Positions 2,802 through 59,236 of a stretch of DNA of 64,000 bases are shown here, piece after piece. Both the position numbers and the translations under genes were made by a program. Origin of the DNA: Escherichia coli (GTDB lineage: Bacteria; Pseudomonadota; Gammaproteobacteria; Enterobacterales; Enterobacteriaceae); NCBI RefSeq assembly GCF_003019035.1, contig NZ_CP027447.1. The stretch is one strand, 5' to 3'. The notes under the pieces are model-generated. The model saw nothing but the letters and a program-made list of their open reading frames with translations, did not search any database and was not told the DNA's origin. Each line of letters opens with the position of its first letter. Within the stretch, counting starts at the first letter, position 1.

Positions 2802-4124
2802 TTATCCGTTAGTTGTTAAGTTATTGACCTTGTTGGCGGCAATAACAAAAGGTAAATAGATCATTGTCGCCACACCTAAACATAAAAAACCCACCAGTAA
2901 CGCCAGCCAGTTTCCCCCGGTTCCGAGGAAAGCAATTAAAGGTCCGGGCGTAGTCCAGGGCACGGCATAAGCAACCGGTGGAATAATTTCCATCGAAACA
3001 AAGAAGTAACCAATGGCACAGTTAACAATAGGAACCATAATAAACGGCACCATCATGATGGGGTTAAGTACAATAGGAAGGCCGAACATTATCGGTTCAT
3101 TGATATTGAAAATACCGGGGATAAATGACATTTTTGCCAGATCACGGTATTCCGCACGCTTAGAAGCGATAAAAATAGCCAACAATAACCCCAACGTCAT
3201 ACCTGAACCGCCGCAGTTGGCGAATGCATCATTAATAGAAGTCCAGGTAATCGGATATGGCGCGCCCCAGGTAGTACCGTGTTGAGCGGCCCAGGAGAGA
3301 TTCTCCAGATTAGCCTCAGAAAAAACGGTTTCTCGAATTGCCGACGTTGTATTAGGTCCGTGGATCCCCAGCACCCAGAGGAAATTACCCACAGCCCCCA
3401 GGATAATTACCGCAAAGATATTCGTTCCCATATGTTTGAGCGGCGTCTGGATTAATGTGTAAATGAGGTCGTTTAATCCTGCCGGGGATATCAGTGTCAG
3501 GCAATAATTAAGTGCGGAAAAGAACACCATGACAAAAAATATTGGCAATAAAACTTTAAATGAACGCGCTACCGCAGGAGGTACAGCTGCCGGCATCGTG
3601 ATGGTGATTTTGGGGTTTCGAGCTAAGCGACAAAATATTTCACTGGTGATCAGTGCAACGATAACAGCAACAAATAACCCCTGCGCGCCGAGATATTTGG
3701 TCGTCAGGAATGCTTGCCCATCTATCATCTGATATGGCGTATATACAATAAAAAATGCTCCTATTGCCGTTAATCCGCATAAAAGATCATCTTGCTCATA
3801 GCTAATCGCCATATTCCTGGCGACCAGGAAAGCAATCATAATTGACATGATATTTACAGAACCATTCATTACCGGAGTAAAAATAGCTTGTGCTTTTTCA
3901 AGGTTGGGGAAAACGCTGTTCAGATGCAGCAGCCCGGCAATAAAGCCGTCGGGCGATAATATGGCAAAGTTAATTAATATAATTAATGAGCTTGCCATGA
4001 TAATTGGAAACGTAAAAACGAATCCATCTCTCACCGCTGCAACATGTTTTTGTGAGTTTAACTTGATAGCAACTGGAACAAGAAAACGTTCCATTCCACG
4101 TTCGAATGAGGCCATTAATCCCAT
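2802..4124 (-). CDS. PTS lactose/cellobiose-family EIIC permease
   Basis: 440 aa polytopic membrane protein between IIB and IIA genes. Confidence 0.8.
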   Translation of the reverse strand: MGLMASFERGMERFLVPVAIKLNSQKHVAAVRDGFVFTFPIIMASSLIILINFAILSPDGFIAGLLHLNSVFPNLEKAQAIFTPVMNGSVNIMSIMIAFLVARNMAISYEQDDLLCGLTAIGAFFIVYTPYQMIDGQAFLTTKYLGAQGLFVAVIVALITSEIFCRLARNPKITITMPAAVPPAVARSFKVLLPIFFVMVFFSALNYCLTLISPAGLNDLIYTLIQTPLKHMGTNIFAVIILGAVGNFLWVLGIHGPNTTSAIRETVFSEANLENLSWAAQHGTTWGAPYPITWTSINDAFANCGGSGMTLGLLLAIFIASKRAEYRDLAKMSFIPGIFNINEPIMFGLPIVLNPIMMVPFIMVPIVNCAIGYFFVSMEIIPPVAYAVPWTTPGPLIAFLGTGGNWLALLVGFLCLGVATMIYLPFVIAANKVNNLTTNG

Positions 4125-4237
4125 TTTTTATACCTGTTGTTTTGGATATTTATACATCCCAATAAAGCATGTATGCCATATCCATTTTATGATGTGTGAA
4201 AAGTTAGTTCAGGTAATAGTTTAATAAAATTAGATTC

Positions 4238-4549
4238 TTACTGTTGCAGTAGTTTCATCGCAAATTCAAGAACTGCCTGTCCGTTCATGGTGCCATAGTC
4301 TTTCATCTCGATAACAGCTACAGGCATTTTCCCCTGTGCAACAGCTTCAATCTCTGGTTTCTGAAAGCGAACTTGCGGGCCAAGTAAAACAACGTCAACT
4401 TCGTTATTTTTAATTTTCCCTTTAGCCTCTGCAATCGCCAATGCGGAAATATTAACTTCAAGTGAAATAGCGTTAGCATGATCAATCATACGTTTAACCA
4501 GCATACTGGTTGACATGCCCGCAGCGCAAACTAACAATATCTTTTTCAT
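4238..4549 (-). CDS. PTS lactose/cellobiose-family EIIB component
   Basis: 103 aa; MKKILLVCAAGMSTSMLV phospho-cysteine loop typical of ChbB-type IIB. Confidence 0.8.
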   Translation of the reverse strand: MKKILLVCAAGMSTSMLVKRMIDHANAISLEVNISALAIAEAKGKIKNNEVDVVLLGPQVRFQKPEIEAVAQGKMPVAVIEMKDYGTMNGQAVLEFAMKLLQQ

Positions 4550-4747
4550 ATTTTCCCTTACTGGTATATAACAGATTACATTGTGTAAATATCATATCCC
4601 GCAGTAGCTATACGTCCTGGTACATTGATCACAGTAATACAGCACTAAAGTTGTTCAACATCAGGGTGATAATTAAACGACTCGGCCATAGGATAAACCA
4701 ATCAGGACTCAACTCCTTGTTTTCAATGGCTCTTAAAAGGTGCAAAA

Positions 4748-5446
4748 GTGATTTTTCAAAAGATTGCCCGCTTACTTAAATCCGAGATCAATGGCTATTC
4801 ATGGCATGTTGGTGATTTGTTGCCGTCAGAAGCTGAACTCGCTGTTCGTTATAATGTTTCGCGTAATACCCTGCGTAAGGCATTATCCTTGCTGGAAGGC
4901 GAAGGAATTATTCATAGAAAGCATGGTTCAGGAACATACATTCAAAAAAAGAATTTTGTTGCACACATTGATCACATGAACAGTTTCAGTGAAATTGCGC
5001 ATAAAAGCGGCAAAGAGGCAGGGAGTCAGATTATGAAATTTGAAGTGCAGGATGCTTCTCCCCCTATTGCGACTGAGCTGAATTTAGTGACTGGTGAGCA
5101 GGTTTATTACATAAAGAGACTGCGATTCATTGAGGATAATGCAGCACAATTAGAAGAAACGTGGATGTCAGTGGCACGTTTTCCTGATTTAACCGTAGCA
5201 CATATGCAAAAATCCAAATTTTCGTATATTGAGAACGAATGCGGGATCAAAATCATTGGCACCTTTGAAACTTTCTCCCCGACTTTTCCTACCCCAGAAA
5301 TCGCCAGTATTTTACGGATCAGCCCACGGGATCCCATACTTAAAATTCAGACCCAGGCTGTGGACAGTAACTCTATTCCGCTGGATTATTCGTTACTTTA
5401 CAGCAATATTTTCGAGTTCCAGGTAAAGTACTTTTTCCCGCGATAA
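4748..5446 (+). CDS. GntR/HutC-family transcriptional regulator (probable regulator of the divergent PTS operon)
   Basis: 232 aa; N-terminal GntR HTH (LPSEAELAVRYNVSRNTLRKALSLLEGEGII) with UTRA-like C-terminal domain; GTG start at 4748. Confidence 0.7.
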   Translation: MIFQKIARLLKSEINGYSWHVGDLLPSEAELAVRYNVSRNTLRKALSLLEGEGIIHRKHGSGTYIQKKNFVAHIDHMNSFSEIAHKSGKEAGSQIMKFEVQDASPPIATELNLVTGEQVYYIKRLRFIEDNAAQLEETWMSVARFPDLTVAHMQKSKFSYIENECGIKIIGTFETFSPTFPTPEIASILRISPRDPILKIQTQAVDSNSIPLDYSLLYSNIFEFQVKYFFPR

Positions 5447-5490: not shown

Positions 5491-6390
5491 TTAGCCTCTA
5501 ACCTTTACCGCTTTACGCCACCGCAAGCCAAATACATTGATATACAGCCCGGTCATAATGAGCACCGCACCGAAAAATTGTAGACCCGTTAAGCGTTCAT
5601 CCAACAATAGTGCCGCACTTGCCAGTCCTACTACGGGCACCAGTAACGATAACGGTGCAACCCGCCAGGTTTCATAGCGTCCCAGTAACGTCCCCCAGAT
5701 CCCATAACCAACAATTGTCGCCACAAACGCCAGATACATCAGAGACAAGATGGTGGTCATATCGATAGTAACCAGACTGTGAATCATGGTTGCGGAACCA
5801 TCGAGAATCAGCGAGGCAACAAAGAAGGGAATGATTGGGATTAATGCACTCCAGATTACCAGCGACATCACCGCCGGACGCGTTGCGTGCGACATGATCT
5901 TTTTATTGAAGATGTTGCCACACGCCCAACTAAATGCTGCCGCCAGGGTCAACATAAAGCCGAGCATCGCCACATGCTGACCGTTCAGACTATCTTCGAT
6001 TAACACCAGTACGCCAAAAATCGCTAAGGCGATCCCCGCCAATTGTTTGCCATGCAGTCGCTCACCGAAAGTAAACGCTCCAAGCACGATAGTAAAAAAC
6101 GCCTGTGCCTGTAACACCAGCGAAGCCAGTCCAGCAGGCATACCGAAGTTAATGGCACAAAAAAGAAAAGCAAACTGCGCAAAACTGATGGTTAATCCAT
6201 ACCCCAGCAGCAAATTCAGTGGTACTTTCGGTCGTGCGACAAAAAAGATAGCCGGAAAAGCAACCAGCATAAAGCGCAAACCGGCCAACATCAGCGGTGG
6301 CATGTTATGAAGCCCCACTTTGATGACCACAAAATTTAGCCCCCATACGACCACTACCAGTAGCGCCAACACCCCATCTTTTCGCGACAT
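5491..6390 (-). CDS. eamA: Cysteine/O-acetylserine exporter EamA (YdeD)
   Basis: ORF 5491..6411; protein from MSRKDGVLALLVVVVWGLNFVVIKVG matches my recollection of E. coli EamA (299 aa, DMT superfamily) almost residue for residue; start placed at the MSRKDG methionine. Confidence 0.9.
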   Translation of the reverse strand: MSRKDGVLALLVVVVWGLNFVVIKVGLHNMPPLMLAGLRFMLVAFPAIFFVARPKVPLNLLLGYGLTISFAQFAFLFCAINFGMPAGLASLVLQAQAFFTIVLGAFTFGERLHGKQLAGIALAIFGVLVLIEDSLNGQHVAMLGFMLTLAAAFSWACGNIFNKKIMSHATRPAVMSLVIWSALIPIIPFFVASLILDGSATMIHSLVTIDMTTILSLMYLAFVATIVGYGIWGTLLGRYETWRVAPLSLLVPVVGLASAALLLDERLTGLQFFGAVLIMTGLYINVFGLRWRKAVKVRG

Positions 6391-7898: not shown

Positions 7899-7994
7899 AT
7901 GCTGGGTAATATGAATGTTTTTATGGCCGTACTGGGAATAATTTTATTTTCTGGGTTTCTGGCCGCGTATTTCAGCCACAAATGGGATGACTAA
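7899..7994 (+). CDS. mgtS: Small membrane protein MgtS (YneM), 31 aa
   Basis: Hand-translated ATG at 7899 after ggag SD: MLGNMNVFMAVLGIILFSGFLAAYFSHKWDD, stop TAA 7992-7994. Below the size cut-off of the ORF track. Confidence 0.75.
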   Translation: MLGNMNVFMAVLGIILFSGFLAAYFSHKWDD

Positions 7995-8024
7995 TGAACG
8001 GAGATAATCCCTCACCTAACCGGC

Positions 8025-8060
8025 CCCTTGTTACAGTTGTGTACAAGGGGCCTGATTTTT
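8025..8060 (+). terminator. Rho-independent terminator downstream of mgtS
   Basis: ccccttgt ... acaagggg stem followed by cctgattttt. Confidence 0.55.
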
Positions 8061-8065
8061 ATGAC

Positions 8066-8172
8066 GGCGAAAAAAAACCGCCAGTAAACCGGCGGTGAAT
8101 GCTTGCATGGATAGATTTGTGTTTTGCTTTTACGCTAACAGGCATTTTCCTGCACTGATAACGGATCGTTGA
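8066..8172 (-). ncRNA. mgrR: Candidate PhoP-regulated sRNA MgrR
   Basis: Minus-strand terminator hairpin ccgccggtttactggcgg plus a run of eight T (plus coords about 8066-8096) roughly 100 nt downstream of a PhoP-box-like direct repeat; location between mgtS and dgcZ agrees with where MgrR is reported. Ends are approximate. Confidence 0.5.
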
Positions 8173-8199
8173 CACAGTAGCATCAGTTTTCTCAATGAA

Positions 8200-8220
8200 T
8201 GTTAAACGGAGCTTAAACTC
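8200..8220 (-). promoter_or_regulatory. PhoP box-like direct repeat (AGTTTA-n5-CGTTTA) for mgrR
   Basis: Minus strand reads GAGTTTAAGCTCCGTTTAAC; hexamer repeats spaced 11 bp apart, overlapping the 3' end of dgcZ. Confidence 0.45.
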
Positions 8221-43184: not shown

Positions 43185-43455
43185 GATGTTACCGTAGTAT
43201 GTGAGTATCCATCGAATAGACACCAAGCAAAAAAGCTCCCGAAGGAGCCTTCATTTTCACTTTTTTAAATCCAACGACAGACGGCTGGCATTTAAGTATT
43301 GTGAAATATTATCAAATGTAATCATCATTGATTTACAAAAGATACATTTTGCCCCGAAAGGATTCATGTCAGAAACATCAAAAGATGATGTTCTATACTG
43401 GGAACCATGACAACACGGGCATCTAAAGTGAATATGGTTTGTAATATTGTCTACC

Positions 43456-43668
43456 TCAAAGCGCCACTACATGAACAGCGGCAGGACCTTTAGGTCCGTT
43501 CTCAATACCAAATTCAACTTCCTGATTCTCAGTTAATGTTTTGAAATCGTTGCTCTGAATTGCTGAGAAATGGACAAACACATCTTTGCTGCCATCTTTC
43601 GGCGTGATGAAACCAAAACCTTTTTCAGGGTTAAACCATTTCACTAAACCAGTCATTTTGTTAGACAT
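43456..43668 (-). CDS. cspI: Cold shock protein CspI
   Basis: 70 aa CspA-family protein with RNP motifs KGFGFI and VFVHF; matches recalled CspI. Confidence 0.85.
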
Positions 43669-44030
43669 AATTATTACCTTTTGAAGAAATTAGCCCTTGG
43701 GCAGAATGGTCCGAAAAAAAATATCAGAGAGAAAAACCAACAAGGAAATCTCAAGAGGTACAAATAATAAAATTATAACAATGACTGCTTCAGATAAATT
43801 TGTAACAAACCAGAACACCATTAACGCATGATTAACCACCCATAGCAAGGATTACTTTTGTAAAGAAAAACACAGCAATGAAAGAATAGCTTTATTTATT
43901 AATAAAACGTGTCATTCTGATTAAGACCTTTTATCTTACCCTTAAGATTTCAGGAATTTTGGCTCATGGAAGAGTCCTTTTTATTTAAATTTTACATTCC
44001 GCGATGTAAATGTTCCGATTTAATATTACC

Positions 44031-46052: not shown

Positions 46053-46339
46053 GGGTTTGAGATTGTGGTGCTTTTTGTGGGAGTCATCCACTTACGCACT
46101 TTGTTTTGCCATGCCAGCAGTTAGCTTCTGCTGTAAAACTATTCATGCAGCAAACCTGCACTTCACCACAATGGTTAGCATACTTTTCCTGATTAAGATT
46201 TTGCCAAATATGCTAGCCATTGTTTCATGTATTGGACCTCCTTACTTTTTATTAAAGAGATCCAATATTCACTACTCTGTCCGTATCTCTACTCAGGCAT
46301 CAGCCTTCTTCGTTATCGTATACAGACGAGCGATGAATT

Positions 46340-46555
46340 TTAATCAGTAATGATGACATTTGCTGCTGCAGGACCTTTAGCACCACTCTCTATAGAGAAG
46401 GTAACCTTTTGACCTTCAAATAAGGTTCGATAATTATCATTCTGAATCGCAGAAAAATGCACAAACACATCTTTACTACCATCAACAGGAGAAATAAAGC
46501 CGAAACCTTTATCAGCGTTAAACCATTTTACTAAACCAGTCATTTTATTTGACAT
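46340..46555 (-). CDS. cspB: Cold shock protein CspB
   Basis: 71 aa CspA-family protein; matches recalled CspB. Confidence 0.85.
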
Positions 46556-46855
46556 TCTACATTCCTTAACTTGAGCCTTTCGGCATAAATGGTTTGCATA
46601 ACAGAAACGACTTCGTACTTAATTGGAGAGACTCAAAGAAGGAATAAGTGAATAACACCTGAAATGAGAACTGCTTTAGTAAACTACTTCGTATATCGTC
46701 TGTTCTTCAAACCGACGCAATCATTAACGCATAGTTGAACATATGAAGCAATGTTTATTTTAGACATCCAGCCATCTTCAACCCCATCAAAAAACTATAG
46801 CTTTCTTCAGGAACGTGTGTATAGTGCGCCAAGTTATCAGTATTAAGGAATTTTT

Positions 46856-50119: not shown

Positions 50120-50275
50120 TTACTCCTCAGGTTCGTAAGCTGTGAAGACAGCGACCTCCGTCTGGCCGGTTCGGATTCGTACCTCGCAGAGGTCTTTCCT
50201 CGTTACCAGTGCCGTCACTATGACGGTTAAACAGATGACGATCAGGGCGATTAACATCGCCTTTTGCTGCTTCAT
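50120..50275 (-). CDS. hokD: Hok-family type I toxin HokD (RelF)
   Basis: Hand-translated 51 aa: MKQQKAMLIALIVICLTVIVTALVTRKDLCEVRIRTGQTEVAVFTAYEPEE; absent from the ORF track because it is shorter than 60 aa. Confidence 0.85.
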   Translation of the reverse strand: MKQQKAMLIALIVICLTVIVTALVTRKDLCEVRIRTGQTEVAVFTAYEPEE

Positions 50276-50346
50276 AGCCTGCTTCTCCTGTCAACGCAAA
50301 GCAGAAGTGTCACCTTCGGTGCGAAACAGAGATGTCATGCTTTGGT

Positions 50347-50634
50347 TCAGAGAATGCGTTTGACCGCCTCGCTATATACTTCCGAGCGTTCTCTTTTCCC
50401 AACAGAAATCACGAAAACGACAACTTTCTCGTCTATAACCTGGTATACAAGGCGATAGCCTGAAGACCGGAGCTTAATCTTGTAACAATCAGGCATACCA
50501 CGGAGCTTGTTTGCTTCAATCCGGGGTGACTCAAGTACTTCAACCAGCTTCTTTTTCAACTGTTCACGTACCGTCGAGCCCAGCTTTCGCCATTCCTTTA
50601 GTGCCCGCTCGTCAAAATCCAGAAAATACGCCAT
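50347..50634 (-). CDS. relE: Type II toxin RelE (mRNA interferase)
   Basis: 95 aa; matches recalled RelE. Confidence 0.9.
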   Translation of the reverse strand: MAYFLDFDERALKEWRKLGSTVREQLKKKLVEVLESPRIEANKLRGMPDCYKIKLRSSGYRLVYQVIDEKVVVFVISVGKRERSEVYSEAVKRIL

Positions 50635-50873
50635 CAGAGTTCATCCAGCGTCACACGTACTGGCTTAGGATTACGAAGCCGTTCTTTCACTATCTCCACA
50701 AGTTCAGCATCTTCATCACTCAGGAGTGTCTGTTTGAACGGCAAGCGTTCATTGTCAGCGATATACTCGAGCATGAGACGAAGCGCTTCAGAAGGAGTTA
50801 CACCCATTTTTTCAAGCGCGGCGTAAGAACGCGCTTTAAGTTCATCGTCAATACGCAGGTTAATGCTACCCAT
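50634..50873 (-). CDS. relB: Type II antitoxin RelB
   Basis: 79 aa; matches recalled RelB; stop overlaps the relE start. Confidence 0.9.
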   Translation of the reverse strand: MGSINLRIDDELKARSYAALEKMGVTPSEALRLMLEYIADNERLPFKQTLLSDEDAELVEIVKERLRNPKPVRVTLDEL

Positions 50874-50879
50874 GTCTTA

Positions 50880-50915
50880 CACCTCTTGTAATTACAAATG
50901 TCATTACAAGTATCG
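50880..50915 (-). promoter_or_regulatory. relBE promoter/operator (relO-like inverted repeats)
   Basis: cttgtaattacaaatgtcattacaag immediately upstream of relB contains the palindromic TTGTAAT/ATTACAA half-sites. Confidence 0.55.
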
Positions 50916-51203
50916 CACTACAACATGCTTAGGGCAAGTCACGAAGGAAGTCAGAAAGTAGTCGTAAGAACGGTGATCACTGTCCGCTTTGTGCCAGGAG
51001 CAGCCATTGCTAAGTCCATCCTGTATTGTGCAGGTCAGCTCGTTTTTAAAGAGTCCGGCCATCATCTTACTGGTACAGACACCATATACTTTGTGACGGT
51101 CAGGCTACATATGCACAACTCAACTTATTCATCTATTTTTTGCTTTAGCATGTCAGTGTTGCTTTCTCGTCGGCGGGTGAGCGGTGACCTGACCTGTCGA
51201 TAA
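50898..51203 (+). CDS. ydfV: Hypothetical protein (ydfV-like position)
   Basis: 101 aa ORF divergent from relB; assignment by position and length only; start overlaps the relO region, so the real start may be internal. Confidence 0.35.
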   Translation: MSLQVSHYNMLRASHEGSQKVVVRTVITVRFVPGAAIAKSILYCAGQLVFKESGHHLTGTDTIYFVTVRLHMHNSTYSSIFCFSMSVLLSRRRVSGDLTCR

Positions 51204-51405
51204 AGGAACGTAACACGTTTTATGCAACACCCGCATGCGGCAGAAAATTATTGCCGAACGTTTACCCCTGTCAACAAGCTTTACTTTCTGAGGCGCGCCA
51301 GCCCGCGAGGAAAACAATCTGAACATCAAACAATTAATGACACAAGAAATACGATTAAAGATTTTTTTGTGCATGCCGATAGTGCTTTTTTAAAAGGAGA
51401 AATCT

Positions 51406-51738
51406 ATGTCTGTCACAATTCAGGGAAATACCTCAACCGTTATTTCAAACAACTCCGCCCCGGAAGGAACATCAGAAATAGCCAAAATCACAAGACAAAT
51501 TCAGGTGCTGACTGAAAAGCTTGGGAAAATCTCATCGGAAGAGGGGATGACGACACAGCAGAAAAAAGAAATGGCTGCATTGGTACAGAAGCAAATTGAA
51601 AGCCTCTGGGCTCAACTGGAGCAGTTGTTAAGGCAGCAGGCAGAGAAAAAGAATGAAGACGCGACAGTTCAGCCTGATAAAAAAGAAGAGAAAAAAGACG
51701 ATACAAATACCGCTGGCACCATTGATATTTACGTCTAA
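51406..51738 (+). CDS. flxA: FlxA (FliA-regulated prophage protein)
   Basis: 110 aa; MSVTIQGNTSTVISNNSAPEGTSEIAKITRQIQVLTEKLGK... matches recalled FlxA. Confidence 0.85.
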   Translation: MSVTIQGNTSTVISNNSAPEGTSEIAKITRQIQVLTEKLGKISSEEGMTTQQKKEMAALVQKQIESLWAQLEQLLRQQAEKKNEDATVQPDKKEEKKDDTNTAGTIDIYV

Positions 51739-51752
51739 GTGACAGCCGTATT

Positions 51753-51776
51753 GTGGCCCTCATCGGGCCACTTTTC
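51753..51776 (+). terminator. Rho-independent terminator after flxA
   Basis: gtggccc tcatc gggccac hairpin followed by ttttcg. Confidence 0.5.
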
Positions 51777-51825
51777 GCCATCAGCCTTTTCTTTAAAGAC
51801 ATATTATCTTTGTATCATTTCTGAT

Positions 51826-53674
51826 AGTTAACATTACAAGATATAAGTAATGGACGCACTCCCAATTAGTCTATTTAAATCGCCACGAGTTTAACTGACA
51901 ACCCATGATCAATTATGAATTGCAACTATTTCTGTAGTCACTTTTGTGGGGACAGTCCACAAAACTGCCAACTTCCGCTTCTTGCTCTTAGCGGACATTA
52001 GCATAGGCTATTTACCATAACGCCTCATTACGCGCACCGCCCAGACTGACTCAGCGCGTTTCTGGCATATCCCCGGTAAAACAAGTAACAAACCACCCGA
52101 AAATGAACACCAGAAACGCGACTTAAGAATCTACCCTATGAATGGATATGCACTCAACCGAATCGATCTTGGTTTCAATCTTTTTTATCGGGATCAGGCT
52201 TCTTTTTAGGTAACTTCGGGGGCTTAACTTGCTGATGACTTTGCGTTCGGCGCGTAAGCCAGGGATGGTCAGCTTTAGGTTTAACATAGTATTTTGAGCG
52301 TAAATCAATACGGGCATTATCCACTCGTTCATGGACACTCTTTTCATCATCCAGTGGTATAGGCTCCGGGCCATCAACATACTTTTCCCAGCCCAGCGCT
52401 TTCCCGTCATACAGAACGTTAATTTCACCGTCAAAGTTCTCGCATACAGTAACAACCGAATGCCTAAGTCGATATCCCCGGCCCTCACTGCGTACCTGAA
52501 ACGCACTGCTTTTGTACTGGAAAGTGAGATTTTTAGACAGAACGCGCTTCGCCTGTAGGCTGAAGATATAACCCAGTTCCTCTTCAGAATGGTGCACATC
52601 AAGATGAGCATTATCAGTAGTACGAGGCGACGTAGCGAACCGGTTGTTATAGGCTTCAATAAAGGTCGGCAACCATGCATTTGCTGTTTCAATATCACTG
52701 ATATTCTGAAGCCGCATTTCTTTGACCAGCCTGTCCTGTAGTGTCTGATTGGCGCGCTCTACCCGCCCTTTTGCCTGCGGGCTGTTGGCATGGATTGGCT
52801 CGATGCCCAGTGTCTTTATCGCACGAGTGAACTGGGTCAGCTCACCTTCCCGCTCTGGGTTATTTACCCTGAATATACTGTGTCTATCAGAGTAGAGAGC
52901 GAGCGGTACGCCATGATCATTAAGGTAACCCCGGAGGGTTTCCATGTAAGCCCGGGTTGTTTCAGCAGGCACAAAACGCAACGCCATCAACGCACTGGTG
53001 GCATCATCAATGAAAACGATCAGTGTACATCTGGGGCCTCGATTTTCAAACCAGTCATGAGGTGAGCCATCAATCTGGATCAGTTCACCGTAAGATGGTC
53101 GTCGCATGCGGCGTTGATATATACGGGCAATTTTACGACGGCGTTCACGCCATAACCCCTCTTCTATCATCCACTTTCTGAGAGTTTCAACGGATAAAGA
53201 TAAACCGTGTATCTCGCGCAATTTTTCGCACGCAAACGTAGGTCCAAAATCAGCGTAACGGCCTTTGAGGAGTGAAATTACTGTTGCTCTGAATTCAGTA
53301 GAAAAGGAATTATTAGGACGCTTTCCACGTCGGTGGGAAACCAGACCAGAAGGCCCTTCATTTCTATACCGTTGCACCAGACGTTTAACCTGCCGAATAG
53401 AAATGCCAATGCGTGCCGCAGCTTGTTCCTGAATAATCTGAAGTCGGTGGAGTTCCTTATGACTCATCGTAACAGTCTCTTTGATCATGAAAAATCCCCC
53501 AGAGAATTGTCTGGGGACATTTTAGAATGGTTCAAAGGGGACATTACAGCTTGGTGTTAACAATAGCCTGCTTCTCCGTGCCTTTCGGCACGTAAGAGGC
53601 TAACCTACATGTGTCTAGCATGAAATTGGCCTCAGATTAATGTTAAGCGTCTTGCAGGACGCGTAATGTTAACT
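51826..53674. mobile_element. Insertion sequence (family uncertain, IS481/ISNCY-like); boundaries tentative
   Basis: Single 437 aa DDE transposase ORF flanked by a 12-bp perfect inverted repeat agttaacattac (51826-51837) / gtaatgttaact (53663-53674); no clear target-site duplication seen. Confidence 0.35.
52175..53488 (-). CDS. DDE transposase with N-terminal HTH and rve-type integrase core
   Basis: 437 aa; HTH near N-terminus (IGISIRQVKRLVQRY); catalytic-triad candidates in IQIDGS, YSDRHSIF and KGRVERANQTL. Confidence 0.8.
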   Translation of the reverse strand: MIKETVTMSHKELHRLQIIQEQAAARIGISIRQVKRLVQRYRNEGPSGLVSHRRGKRPNNSFSTEFRATVISLLKGRYADFGPTFACEKLREIHGLSLSVETLRKWMIEEGLWRERRRKIARIYQRRMRRPSYGELIQIDGSPHDWFENRGPRCTLIVFIDDATSALMALRFVPAETTRAYMETLRGYLNDHGVPLALYSDRHSIFRVNNPEREGELTQFTRAIKTLGIEPIHANSPQAKGRVERANQTLQDRLVKEMRLQNISDIETANAWLPTFIEAYNNRFATSPRTTDNAHLDVHHSEEELGYIFSLQAKRVLSKNLTFQYKSSAFQVRSEGRGYRLRHSVVTVCENFDGEINVLYDGKALGWEKYVDGPEPIPLDDEKSVHERVDNARIDLRSKYYVKPKADHPWLTRRTQSHQQVKPPKLPKKKPDPDKKD

Positions 53675-53822
53675 GGGGCTTTTCTCTATCTGCCGTTGGT
53701 GTCCATGCCCGAGGCAGATAGCCTCAAGCACCCGCAGTCATTCTACTTAACTAAGATTTCCCCGCAAACCGTTTTTGTCCAGCACAGTAAATATCCAACT
53801 AAACCAATGGAGTTCGCTGTAT

Positions 53823-54041
53823 TTACCGCCAGTATTCAATGCACATGACCGCCATGAACACCCCTAAAAAAAGGGCATTTATATATCCAAATATTAATAT
53901 CAAAACATCAACTTTTTCCATATACCTTGCTGTGAAGATGATGGGCATACATGATGCGAACAACCAGAACGCAACAAACAAAAACTGCAATGCGTTTTTC
54001 ATTATTCCTCCTACAATCAATGTGCAATTACATTTAAACAC
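53823..54041 (-). CDS. Hypothetical small membrane protein (two predicted TM helices)
   Basis: 72 aa ORF (likely start MKNALQFLFVAFWLFASCMPIIF...); AT-rich codon usage unlike the flanking phage genes. Confidence 0.4.
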   Translation of the reverse strand: MFKCNCTLIVGGIMKNALQFLFVAFWLFASCMPIIFTARYMEKVDVLILIFGYINALFLGVFMAVMCIEYWR

Positions 54042-54433
54042 ACCTCAATTTGGCCGGACATATAAATATCTAAACCAGAAAAAATCACTTACATAGCGTT
54101 ACAAACTCTTTAGTCTAAAGGTTCATCGTAAAACATTCCCCATACTTATCAGTCCGTTCCGCGCCAGGTAGCTCATTGCCTTATCTGGCAACCTGTAATC
54201 AGGTTTCCGCTTTTTCAGTTGGCTGGTCGTTTAACCGACATAGTTAATCCATTAATCTAGTTGCCGGATGTTGGTGGATTTTCGCGTTTTAGTTGTTCAT
54301 AAAAGTGCACAGCTTTAACCAGTTCTTCTGATGTAACTGGGACTGGTGAGGCAGTGAATAAGGCCTGAATTTGATAGTTCGGCCTGTCGTTACAATCCTC
54401 TTTTTTCGGTACATATTTCCAGTCACCAGACCA

Positions 54434-54892
54434 CTACTTCCCCTGAAAGTCCGTAACGCCTTTTTTCACGTAGCGATATCGCCATGCCACTGGTTTTGCT
54501 TGCCCCGCCGTTTCATGCCCTTCCTGATAATTAATCTCGCTCATTCATCGCCCCACTCATCACAATATGCTTCGACCGGAGTTTTTCCCGCTTCATAGTC
54601 ATCACGCTAGGATTCGACATCAGCAGCACTTCCACCGCGTAACTCACCATAGTCCATTAATAGTTCATCCCGCTCTTCAAAACTGATGTTATATTTAGCT
54701 GAACAAAAATCAGCCACTTTGTTCTTCCTCATCGTCTTTTATTTCGTGGTATGAGTAATTGCAGTAGTTAAAGAAAATTTCTTATGCTCCGTCATGAATT
54801 TCCTCAGGTGTTGCGTCATCGTCCACTTCGAATACATCCTCAAAATCTCCACCAGCTATTCCCGTTTCAATAATAATTTTGAACTTTCGCAT
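54434..54892 (-). other. Cluster of tiny overlapping ORFs (23-41 aa) in shifting frames; probably decayed gene(s)
   Basis: Hand translation gives 36, 41, 23 and 36 aa ORFs at 54782-54892, 54607-54732, 54531-54602 and 54434-54544; an alternative frame across the second gap reads protein-like DDYEAGKTPVEAYCDEWGDE; SD sequences are weak. Confidence 0.3.
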
Positions 54893-55154
54893 TTCACTAC
54901 CGCCCTTTCGGGCGGCCTCCTGATGTTCTGAGGGTGCAGAAATCCATCCGGTTAAGGATTAAATTTTATTTACAGAACTGAATTTAATTATTCAGATATA
55001 CGTATCTGTAGCCTTACGAATCTACTCACTGGATGCCTCTTTCATAAAAATAATCCAGTGGGTTTTATCGTTTTTTCCCTGTTCGTTGACAGATAACAGG
55101 TTTTCTGTCTGTCAGTGCCAGAATCTGGCTTACCGGTATTTGCGTTTCATTCCA

Positions 55155-55511
55155 TTAAAAAATCAGAACGCCGTGCGGCCTCAACACCCGAAAGGCTTCT
55201 TTAAATCTCTGTCGCGAATCATCACGCCAGGCATCTTTATTCAGCCGTCCATATTTCTTTCCCATCCAGGCGTTATCACCAACACTCTCAAGATGCGGAG
55301 GGTCTAATACAACCATCGAAAAAGATGCGTCTGCAAATGATAATGCACGAAAATCTGCGATAATGTCAGGGCTGATAATCAAGCGTCTCCCATTGCGTAA
55401 TGTGTATCCTTCTTTTCTGATATCGCTGAATATCGCCCGTTCGTCAGACTTATCGAACCAGAACATGCGGCTGCCACAGCACATATCAAGAATGGTTGCC
55501 GGTGCACTCAC
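55155..55511 (-). CDS. SAM-dependent methyltransferase-like protein (motif I and DPPH motif IV), possibly truncated
   Basis: 118 aa; ILDMCCGSR resembles SAM-binding motif I and VVLDPPH resembles the D/N-PP-Y/F/H motif IV of amino-methyltransferases; too short for a complete DNA MTase. Confidence 0.45.
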   Translation of the reverse strand: MSAPATILDMCCGSRMFWFDKSDERAIFSDIRKEGYTLRNGRRLIISPDIIADFRALSFADASFSMVVLDPPHLESVGDNAWMGKKYGRLNKDAWRDDSRQRFKEAFRVLRPHGVLIF

Positions 55512-55930
55512 TGCGCCACGTCCTGAAAATTACCCTGATAGAAAGCCAGTATGCGCTGCATAACTTCGCTCTTCCGGCACTCGCGACAGATTATGTTTAG
55601 GCGACTGTCGTAGCGACGTATTTCTCCGTCAGGTGATGACCAGATAAGGTCCGGATCAACCACAGCAGGTTTCTTCACCTTTGCCCTCGAGAGTTTTTTG
55701 CGGGCGTTTTGCCAGTCCTTACGCGCCTGTTCAGAGGGGAATAACCCGTAGCCGGAGTTGTATACATCGCCACTGGCTACCAGCTCTCTGGCAAGAACGC
55801 TCATCAGATATCTAGTCGCACCTGTTTTAGCTTCCAGTTGCCGTAACGTCTCACGGCCGCTCTGGCGCACGAGTTCCACCACCTGCCATTTAATTTTTTC
55901 CCGCTCTTCTTGTGTAAAAACTTTTGCCAC
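55508..55930 (-). CDS. Hypothetical protein (early-region, possible DNA-binding)
   Basis: 140 aa; basic; CRECR near C-terminus; stop overlaps the start of the methyltransferase-like ORF. Confidence 0.5.
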   Translation of the reverse strand: MAKVFTQEEREKIKWQVVELVRQSGRETLRQLEAKTGATRYLMSVLARELVASGDVYNSGYGLFPSEQARKDWQNARKKLSRAKVKKPAVVDPDLIWSSPDGEIRRYDSRLNIICRECRKSEVMQRILAFYQGNFQDVAQ

Positions 55931-55970
55931 AAGTCCCCCTTAAAATTACCTCATGACCTGAAATCAACAC

Positions 55971-56990
55971 TTATCCTCTGAAACCAGGCGGAATTTCTGT
56001 ATCCGGTTCAGAAATATGATTAACACAACGCTGTACAGGTGAACGTCCCAGGCGGATGACCAGTTCGTCCCATTTTTCGCGGAGCTTTGACGGGCTCATG
56101 ATGTTTTTTACCCAGAATGGATCTCGCTGAACCCGACCAAACATTTCGCAAATTTGTCTGTGGCTTCTGCCATCCAGCATCCGCATTGTGCGCACGTCAT
56201 TGGCCCAGGCAGTCCAGTTAGGCTCTTTTGGTCGCATGATCTCGCCATCATCACTGGCTGCCTGTTCGTAGAGACCCACGATCCGCCCCCAGATCCACTG
56301 CGCACACGCCAAATCCTCCCTGCTACCCCACTGGCGTTTTTTCGCACTAAACACAACCGCGTCGGAGTTCCGGGTTAAAAAATCCTGTTCAGTCGTCTGC
56401 GGGTCCGGTTGCGAAGCTTCCGGACGAAAAGTGTTTTTATTCTCTGTAGTAATCTCTGTTGTATTCTCTGTAAGATCATCAGGCCATTTTGACCCGATGA
56501 CATTGGGTCGTTTTGAACCAATGGAGCGTTTCATTTTGACCTCTTCCATCGTGTCATTTTGACCTGATGGAGCGGCGCATTTTGAACCGATGGATTCGCT
56601 CAATTTGCCACCATCTAAAAGCTCGCTCCCATAGTTGATCGTGTAGAAATTGGTCATATCGCGCTTTGATTTATTGAGCTTTTCACAACGCAAAAGCCCC
56701 AGCGTTTTCAGACTTGCAAACGCGCGCTTTAACGTTGACTCTGACCAGAATGGGAACTGTTCCAGCCATTGTTCCGTTGTGTTATAAATCCAGCGAACAC
56801 CATCACATTCCATGCCGGAGTTGGTATCTCTCAACCAGTAGTGCAGTTGTTGCAAAACAATGGCTTCGTTTAAGCCAATTTTCATTGCCAGCTGCGTGTT
56901 TATAACCAGTGGGCGTTCAGCAAAAAGAAGGCTCATAATTCCATCCAGCTTTTTGTTGGTATTGCTGTCGATACGCAAGTTTGAAAGCAA
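55971..56990 (-). CDS. Putative replication initiation protein (replisome-organiser-like)
   Basis: 339 aa ORF in the position of lambda O, downstream of the cro-like dicC; N-terminal winged-helix-like segment; start may be the internal MSLLFAERPLV. Confidence 0.45.
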   Translation of the reverse strand: MLSNLRIDSNTNKKLDGIMSLLFAERPLVINTQLAMKIGLNEAIVLQQLHYWLRDTNSGMECDGVRWIYNTTEQWLEQFPFWSESTLKRAFASLKTLGLLRCEKLNKSKRDMTNFYTINYGSELLDGGKLSESIGSKCAAPSGQNDTMEEVKMKRSIGSKRPNVIGSKWPDDLTENTTEITTENKNTFRPEASQPDPQTTEQDFLTRNSDAVVFSAKKRQWGSREDLACAQWIWGRIVGLYEQAASDDGEIMRPKEPNWTAWANDVRTMRMLDGRSHRQICEMFGRVQRDPFWVKNIMSPSKLREKWDELVIRLGRSPVQRCVNHISEPDTEIPPGFRG

Positions 56991-57438
56991 TTGCTTTTTC
57001 TATAAGTTCGTCAGTTTCACGATCCACTACGGCAGGATCAGCAAAAAGCAGTCCGGACTCCACCACATCGCCATATTCTTTGTTTAACCCGGCGATCATG
57101 CACGTGATGCTTTTTCCGTCAGTAATTTCACGATACAACCTGAAATCATTAATCCGGATAGCCTCCATAATTGCAGGCACTAGCGCCGTGAACTTTTCAC
57201 GCTTATCCCTGGTGTCGATAGCCTTCCAGCGTTCAAATATCTTCACTCGATTAACGCCAAGCGCTCGCTGATCAATCGCGCCACCTTCATATGTGACACG
57301 CTGAACATCGATGTTCGGGCGCTCTTTCAAAGCCCAGAATGCTTCAGTGATTAATATCGTCGCCTGCTCCTGTGTCATTCCTGGTCGACATATCCAGGCA
57401 TCCAGAGCCTCACGAGCCTGTTCAGGAGTGATTTTCAT
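56917..57438 (-). CDS. Hypothetical protein directly downstream of dicC
   Basis: 173 aa ORF overlapping the dicC stop and the next ORF; no motif recognised. Confidence 0.45.
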   Translation of the reverse strand: MKITPEQAREALDAWICRPGMTQEQATILITEAFWALKERPNIDVQRVTYEGGAIDQRALGVNRVKIFERWKAIDTRDKREKFTALVPAIMEAIRINDFRLYREITDGKSITCMIAGLNKEYGDVVESGLLFADPAVVDRETDELIEKAIAFKLAYRQQYQQKAGWNYEPSFC

Positions 57439-59183: not shown

Positions 59184-59236
59184 TTTCTGGTGACGTTTGG
59201 CGGTATCAGTTTTACTCCGTGACTGCTCTGCCGCCC
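59184..59236 (+). ncRNA. dicF: DicF small RNA (ftsZ-targeting antisense sRNA)
   Basis: tttctggtgacgtttggcggtatcagttttactccgtgactgctctgccgccc followed by ttttt matches the 53-nt DicF sequence I recall. Confidence 0.85.

Follow-up and report, generated by a model that had tools for sequence, protein, structure and literature searches.

The early-right (nin) region of a Qin-type lambdoid prophage of Escherichia coli contains, on the minus strand, a 72-codon open reading frame (ORF) with a GTG start (53823..54041) that is left unannotated by RefSeq/PGAP in every RefSeq genome sampled; is this stretch a gene and, if so, which protein does it encode and what might that protein do for the prophage? 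The DNA considered here is a window of 64,000 nucleotides (the whole stretch that was analyzed); the region examined is 100% identical to the chromosome of ATCC 8739. On the minus strand, the early-right operon proceeds from dicA/dicC through replication genes and nin-region genes to hokD-relBE, rem, ydfU, and Q. The original prediction, made from the letters of the DNA, placed in this phage early region an AT-rich gene for a small membrane protein; the ORF is present in the ORF list exactly as described, its location is indeed the early-right (nin) region of a lambdoid prophage, and its composition differs from that of its neighbors, that is, the GC content is 0.34 over 53850-54149 (the most AT-rich stretch of the neighborhood) versus 0.45-0.50 on both flanks. 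Rfam matches elsewhere in the window include the STnc560 Hfq-binding sRNA (7988-8201, minus strand; 282 bits), two cspA-type thermoregulator leaders (43429-43814 and 46324-46716, both minus strand), and DicF (59185-59236, plus strand).

Homologues fall into four diverged lineages: the window type, TA280 (78% identical to the window copy), the nin region of an Stx phage (P0090 in L089; 54%), and phylogroup-B2 chromosomes (P0079/P0085; 41%). In all four lineages the GC content of the gene is low (0.32-0.38). The features of the locus on which the following argument depends are these:

53823..54002, minus strand: 59-aa coding sequence (ATG 54002-54000, stop codon TAA 53825-53823; ORF list and conservation).
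54003..54041, minus strand: in-frame 13-codon upstream extension from GTG 54041, with stops in two lineages.
54007..54012, minus strand: Shine-Dalgarno sequence AGGAGG, 4 nt 5' of the ATG (sequence).
54030..54042, minus strand: conserved motif T.TG.TTAA.T.T, about 30 nt 5' of the ATG; its specified columns do not vary across the DNA alignment of the four lineages.
53928..53993, minus strand: hydrophobic helix 1, codons 4-25 (Kyte-Doolittle, AlphaFold2, and invariant W13, S17, C18, P20, I21, and I22).
53838..53912, minus strand: hydrophobic helix 2, codons 31-55 (Kyte-Doolittle, AlphaFold2, and invariant G39, A43, and G47).
53866..53872, minus strand: T7 homopolymer within the 59-aa gene, the site of the commonest frameshift alleles.
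53839..54096, plus strand: antisense 85-aa ORF, called 'hornerin' or hypothetical in phage records and judged spurious here.

The ORF offers two starts, and the original prediction had already preferred the internal ATG at 54002, the product of which is a 59-aa protein (MKNALQF...EYWR). This choice is correct: the Shine-Dalgarno sequence lies 4 bases upstream of that ATG, and the upstream extension is closed by stop codons in the B2-type (L085) and Stx-phage (L089) lineages; therefore, the 59-aa form is the protein, and the 72-aa form was rejected. The ribosome-binding site of relatives reads AGGAGG, AGGGGG, or GGGGGG, that is, it is purine-rich throughout; the upstream ATG of TA280 has no Shine-Dalgarno sequence before it. 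The extension is probably untranslated and a part of the 5' leader.

One could argue that the stretch is not a functional gene, that is, that the ORF arose by chance in the AT-rich spacer before the hok promoter or that the antisense 85-aa ORF is the real gene. ORFs of such length commonly arise by chance, and the length alone is not significant because 80 ORFs of ≥30 aa fall wholly or partly within 50-58 kb; PGAP never calls the 59-aa gene (the databases name its product solely 'hypothetical protein' or 'membrane protein'), and the annotators of phage genomes picked the opposite strand. The comparison of the lineages speaks against chance. All four encode exactly 59 aa in a gap-free alignment, whereas the flanking DNA requires gaps, so that length and frame are kept down to 41% identity; of the six frames, only the 59-aa sense frame is open in all four lineages. 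Differences accumulate in excess at third codon positions (e.g., 16/10/34 by codon position), and dN/dS is 0.13-0.32 for pairs of lineages. When the same number of substitutions was placed at random, the observed amino acid identity together with an open frame was reached in ≤0.1% of 20,000 trials for every tested pair (p ≤ 0.001 per lineage pair).

The antisense ORF fares no better. Three phage records contain the 59-aa gene, and all of them annotate the opposite-strand 85-aa ORF instead (e.g., PV340562.1, 10959-11210; ON470612.1, 23105-23356); however, the 'hornerin' frame contains two stops in each of the B2-type and Stx-phage copies and lacks a Shine-Dalgarno sequence, and we rejected it as a gene because of these stops. 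By manual derivation from the frame offsets, the antisense and sense frames share their third codon positions, and this would account for the open antisense frame among close relatives. Searched against family profiles, the antisense ORF gave nothing above noise (DUF5445 at E = 0.38 is sub-threshold). The phage records that annotate the wrong strand merit correction.

Within populations the gene is largely intact. In a sample of 117 prophage copies for which the sole criterion was a 29-nt start-codon DNA pattern, and which is therefore blind to the integrity of the ORF, 114 encode the 59-aa protein intact; of the three truncated alleles, two terminate at the T7 tract, which is also the site of the frameshift variants P0022, P0024, and P0026. 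Because truncated and frameshifted alleles exist, the gene is dispensable. Among 23 closely related haplotypes, all five polymorphic sites are non-synonymous; thus, there is no signal of purifying selection inside the window lineage, and this would suit a chance ORF. The intactness of the 1045 B2-type copies says little about selection because they are near-identical (≥95% identity for all and ≥99% for 1009 of them). In the window, the 59-aa gene is intact although the genes upstream are pseudogenes (54123-54544 and about 54710-54892, minus strand; in the ATCC 8739 annotation, a hypothetical protein with a frameshift and a DUF7167 gene interrupted by a stop codon) and hok is severed. We conclude with high confidence that this is a real gene for a membrane protein; the reading as a chance or antisense ORF is largely refuted already, and we regard it as very improbable.

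The protein was predicted to be strongly hydrophobic with two transmembrane helices, and both expectations are borne out: the grand average of hydropathy is 1.27, Kyte-Doolittle analysis (19-residue windows) identifies two segments above 2.0 (residues 4-25 and 31-55), and the AlphaFold2 model (12-sequence alignment; mean pLDDT 73.6) contains helices at residues 2-25 and 31-58 that are separated by a five-residue turn. The original prediction had staked itself on these helices and on conservation of the ORF; both are found. Seventeen columns of the alignment are invariant, and most are inside the helices: L5, L8, W13, S17, C18, P20, I21, and I22 in helix 1, with an invariant S17-C18-x-P20 motif; L36, F38, G39, A43, and G47 in helix 2, where G39-x3-A43-x3-G47 forms a small-xxx-small packing face; and E56, W58, and R59 at the C-terminal end of helix 2. 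Substitutions within the helices exchange one hydrophobic residue for another. Each lineage has one or two basic residues at the N-terminus, and the loop (ARYMEKVDV, AEEMEEVDV, SEYLTEAS, and AKHIPEVDV in the four lineages) has a net charge of 0 to -5.

By the positive-inside rule, the basic N-terminus and the neutral-to-acidic loop suggest that the protein is probably an inner-membrane hairpin with an N-in/loop-out/C-in topology, that is, the short basic N-terminus and the C-terminus would be cytoplasmic and the acidic turn of 5-8 residues would be periplasmic. Because almost nothing extends outside the bilayer and the invariant residues are located in the helices, the protein would act inside the membrane by helix-helix contacts; the G/A/G face of helix 2 would be the surface by which it packs, either with itself or with another membrane protein.

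The term 'orphan' applied to this gene needs qualification. The part that stands is the lack of relatives among known families: scans of Pfam (hmmscan, E ≤ 1), PHROGs, NCBIfam, and PADLOC returned no family match (the PHROGs and PADLOC scans, at E ≤ 1, covered two lineages and were both empty), TIGR03647 at E = 0.12 for the B2-type protein is sub-threshold noise, and a Foldseek search of the AlphaFold2 model against the PDB found no match. A word-indexed search and an exhaustive HMM search (1.84 billion cluster representatives) retrieved Escherichia/Shigella sequences only; the sole match among 100,044 GTDB species representatives is a 100%-identical contig in a Collinsella metagenome-assembled genome (MAG). 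This 5.5-kb contig (L094; JAIJJM010000167.1, 'Collinsella sp.' MAG) carries the gene of the E. coli prophage and is almost certainly an E. coli contig that was mis-binned into the Collinsella genome. The part that does not stand is solitude, that is, the gene belongs to a small family of four lineages; from these searches, the family appears to be new and confined to the accessory genome of E. coli/Shigella, although small membrane proteins of prophages as a general kind are already well known.

Within E. coli the gene is common. The window type is present in 1568 of 5426 complete genomes and the B2 type in 1045 of the 5426, including CFT073, Nissle-like strains, and ST131, in which it is unannotated. 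The B2-type copy is located inside a decayed prophage remnant between ttcA and uspF, and its 59-aa ORF is intact despite the decay around it. This remnant (L088, which is CFT073 3113-5298; L085; L086) also contains an integrase and a DUF1627 protein, both as fragments, the remains of a deleted hok, and a metal ABC permease gene with a frameshift. The Qin prophage of K-12 MG1655 lacks the 4.8 kb that correspond to 52360-57158 of the window, so that the 59-aa gene is gone together with the replication genes, the sok/hok leader, and most of the transposase; the deletion joins a C-terminal fragment of the transposase (ydfW) to ydfX. The gene has never been studied because it is deleted from the Qin prophage of K-12. 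The 59-aa sequence string was not found in any paper, and a preprint surveying Hok nowhere mentions the upstream gene.

What surrounds the gene bears on its function, and here the original prediction, which placed it next to an insertion sequence (IS), was right in part: an IS is nearby, but a 260-bp remnant of a hok/sok leader intervenes, and the 'IS' is a larger unit that carries cargo genes. The neighboring features in the window are:

53562..53733, minus strand: hok/sok 5' leader (sok and the start of mok), cut from the hok coding sequence (Rfam RF01794 sok, 104.1 bits).
53563..53577, strand not assigned: 15-bp direct repeat ATAGCCTGCTTCTCC, copy 1, in the Shine-Dalgarno-to-start region of hok (target-site duplication; exact repeat D10).
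50289..53562, strand not assigned: IS1202-family unit of 3,274 bp with transposase, ydfW, flxA, ydfV, relB, and relE (junctions and repeats).
52175-53488, minus strand: transposase of the unit, 437 aa (ORF list).
50274..50288, strand not assigned: 15-bp direct repeat, copy 2, which supplies the Shine-Dalgarno sequence and start codon of hokD.
50120..50275, minus strand: coding sequence of hokD (3' half of the interrupted hok locus; ORF list).

The arrangement is explained by the intact hok locus of phage vB_EcoS-640R1, to which the leader aligns up to the hok start codon and which split-aligns onto 53861-53563 and 50289-50025 of the window; this locus is also the empty site for the unit (L002, about 3000-3060), with a single copy of the repeat. 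In 77 of the 99 informative IMG/VR copies, as in vB_EcoS-640R1, hok (51 codons) directly follows the leader, and its product is identical to HokD in vB_EcoS-640R1 and in 60 of the 77 sampled copies; a mobile element is found exactly at the hok start codon instead in the window and in 21 of the sampled copies. Hence the typical locus consists of nin genes, the 59-aa gene, a spacer of about 54 nt, the hok promoter (putatively TTTGCG-17-TAGAAT, 53768-53740), and hok/sok.

The unit that severs hok has imperfect terminal inverted repeats of about 30 bp (TGTTAACACC... and ...GCGTTGACA), of which about 23 of 30 positions are identical in a hand alignment of the junction sequences (an automated comparison that was one base out of register scored 9/40). 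A 99.8%-identical copy is present on IncF plasmids of Enterobacter, Salmonella, and E. coli, inside other hok loci, and a variant with different middle cargo is present on a Citrobacter plasmid. The plasmid copies (L092, 2501-5801; L093, 2001-6155) are flanked by 14-bp and 16-bp duplications and are inserted at the equivalent position of plasmid-type hok, that is, in the Shine-Dalgarno-to-ATG sequence GGAGAAG(C/A)AGGC(T/C)AT. Insertion at the hok start region is thus seen in three contexts, with duplications of 15, 14, and 16 bp; this implies that the insertions were independent and targeted to hok.

PGAP names the transposase of the plasmid copies 'IS1202-like element ISEsa1 family'. Members of the ISTde1-type subgroup of IS1202 encode a single DDE transposase of 400-500 aa and have imperfect terminal inverted repeats and 15-17-bp direct repeats; they are 1.3-2.0 kb long with no passenger gene or a single one (10.1101/2022.12.17.520857). 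Our unit resembles them in its 437-aa transposase, imperfect terminal repeats, and 14-16-bp duplications but differs in its length of 3,274 bp and its five passengers ydfW, flxA, ydfV, relB, and relE. ISfinder gives ISEsa1 as 1,609 bp with no detectable target duplication (PMC10132070); the duplication emerges when the unit is taken as 3.27 kb rather than 1,609 bp. Together these observations suggest a relBE-carrying transposon that would target the translation-initiation region of hok; insertion at the hok start would account for the position of hokD behind relBE without a mok/sok leader. We found no paper in the literature that links a relBE-carrying unit to hok-targeted insertion. Compared with the plasmid copies, the transposase in the window has a 27-bp in-frame deletion near codon 20 that removes nine codons (ESINRHITQ) from the N-terminal region; because of this deletion, the prophage copy of the unit may be immobile.

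Is the 59-aa gene then a part of the hok/sok locus? One reading is that its product is a functional partner of the adjoining hok/sok, e.g., a modulator of Hok or an immunity factor, so that the two genes would form a membrane cassette. The linkage is extensive: in the window type and TA280 the ORF is contiguous with the hok/sok leader as a single block, a sok leader lies ≤330 nt downstream of the ORF in 111 of the 117 copies, and the B2-type copy is followed by the decayed hok remnant; three of the four lineages are hok-linked. The linkage is nevertheless broken in both directions. Thousands of genomes, and also Stx phages, carry the leader unaccompanied by the ORF (e.g., hokW of 933W has a different gene upstream), and the ORF persists where hok is severed (the window and the 21 copies), decayed (the B2 type), or absent (the Stx-phage copy L089); moreover, plasmid hok loci function, to our knowledge, without any such upstream gene. 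We consider a partnership with Hok quite improbable.

The Stx-phage copy is instructive in this respect. In L089 the ORF is on the strand opposite to every neighbor and beside a C4/isrK antirepressor module; neither a Hok-like ORF nor a sok match was found beside it, only a 41-nt piece on the opposite strand that resembles a plasmid hok leader. Within 5650-6600 of L089, the homologue is convergent with this P1/P7-like antirepressor module (C4 antisense RNA, 71 bits; isrK, 55 bits) and adjoins a match to sRNA-Xcc1 (76 bits); its upstream region contains inverted TTGTCAAC/GTTGACAA repeats. The orientation opposite to that of all of its neighbors in L089 argues for a putative promoter of its own; in the window type, in which the gene is co-oriented with the early operon, it may simply be transcribed by read-through.

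The lineages are homologous solely over the ORF, about 40 nt on its 5' side, and about 25 nt on its 3' side. The conserved upstream segment includes the T.TG.TTAA.T.T motif (L004, about 4540-4552; L085, about 790-802; L089, about 5961-5973), which is spaced like an extended -10 element (TGnTTAAAT) but has a hexamer (TTAAAT/TTAACT) without the near-invariant A at -11; the motif could be an extended -10-like element, the start of a short upstream reading frame, or a binding site. A sigma-70 consensus scan around the ORF identified no promoter and no useful terminator, RNAalifold detected no conserved RNA structure in the leader (consensus energy, -0.12 kcal/mol), and the four-lineage alignment contains no conserved blocks for an antisense promoter or terminator.

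Given its occurrence in the absence of hok and its inversion in one Stx phage, the gene behaves as a self-contained accessory cassette of the moron type in the lambdoid early-right (nin) region, usually located directly upstream of a complete hok/sok. It resembles the morons of lambdoid prophages in its atypical composition, variable presence (the 1568 of 5426 genomes and the three phage records), orientation independent of the operon in L089, and homology confined to the ORF and short flanks; it is unlike them in that no clear promoter or terminator of its own was found.

As candidate roles for a protein of this kind, the original prediction named exclusion, toxicity, and inhibition of cell division. 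Taken whole, the explanation toward which we lean, with modest confidence, is that a genuine unannotated gene for a hairpin protein constitutes a portable cassette, and that its product acts within the membrane in an exclusion-type role. The 59-aa protein would self-associate or bind a membrane protein of the host or of a phage, and it would act for the prophage or the lysogen, beside hok/sok, in exclusion or in abortive infection; we prefer this role because the gene behaves like a moron and survives in decayed prophages with dead neighbors, and we put forward the exclusion-type mechanism itself only tentatively. The hok/sok locus itself has been reported to exclude T4, and T4 Imm and HK97 gp15 are small superinfection-exclusion membrane proteins that act on DNA entry at the membrane and are of use to the lysogen. 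The 59-aa protein is like the latter two in being a short protein of the inner membrane (here by prediction) that is encoded by an accessory or moron gene; unlike them, it has no match in PHROGs or PADLOC. In a bolder version, which we judge unlikely, the hairpin would be the active determinant of a new exclusion family that, alone or with hok/sok, blocks DNA entry or aborts infection by way of a host transporter or the incoming injection machinery; such a family would have been missed because K-12 has deleted it and gene callers skip it.

The main rival to an exclusion role is that the protein is a small membrane-damaging toxin of the GhoT/OrtT type, in which helix 2 would form a glycine-zipper-like oligomer that depolarizes or permeabilizes the inner membrane, with a use in lysis timing, abortive infection, or stabilization of the prophage. 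GhoT and OrtT are about 57 aa long and have two transmembrane helices; the 59-aa protein likewise has two hydrophobic helices with almost no soluble part and is encoded in the accessory genome, its G39xxxA43xxxG47 pattern is invariant, and an intact membrane toxin gene, hok, directly adjoins it in the 77 of 99 informative copies described above. Against this, the Pfam search at E ≤ 1, which included the GhoT_OrtT model, detected no sequence similarity; no conserved upstream partner gene is present as a candidate antitoxin (i.e., no equivalent of GhoS); neither a structured leader nor a conserved antisense unit such as keeps type I toxins in check was found; and the gene is intact in decayed prophages without a visible control element. 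A toxin of this type is thus possible but, in our estimate, doubtful. The Hok/Gef type I toxins offer a similar comparison: they too are small hydrophobic inner-membrane peptides encoded in prophages, but the 59-aa protein has two helices rather than one and no Pfam match, and its gene has no mok-like overlapping frame, Sok-like antisense RNA, or folded leader (the Rfam sok match is restricted to 53562-53733, downstream of the ORF, and does not cover the gene). The small size and two helices would also suit a class II holin or a pinholin-like lysis protein; however, the gene is located in the nin region, about 7-10 kb from the lysis cassette (the cspA leaders and the essQ/rrrQ region), the protein lacks a charged C-terminal tail (it ends at EYWR, two residues past helix 2) and a dual-start motif, and no holin family of PHROGs or Pfam matches it, so we give a lysis function hardly any credence.

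The gene is missing from K-12, from RefSeq annotation, and from Pfam, PHROGs, and NCBIfam, so screens that are based on K-12 or on annotation are blind to it. It is a cheap target for small-protein work: it is short, its invariant intramembrane residues are amenable to mutation, and null alleles occur naturally. If it is true that its expression excludes phages or kills the cell, the 59-aa proteins would be a new family among the few very small membrane effectors.
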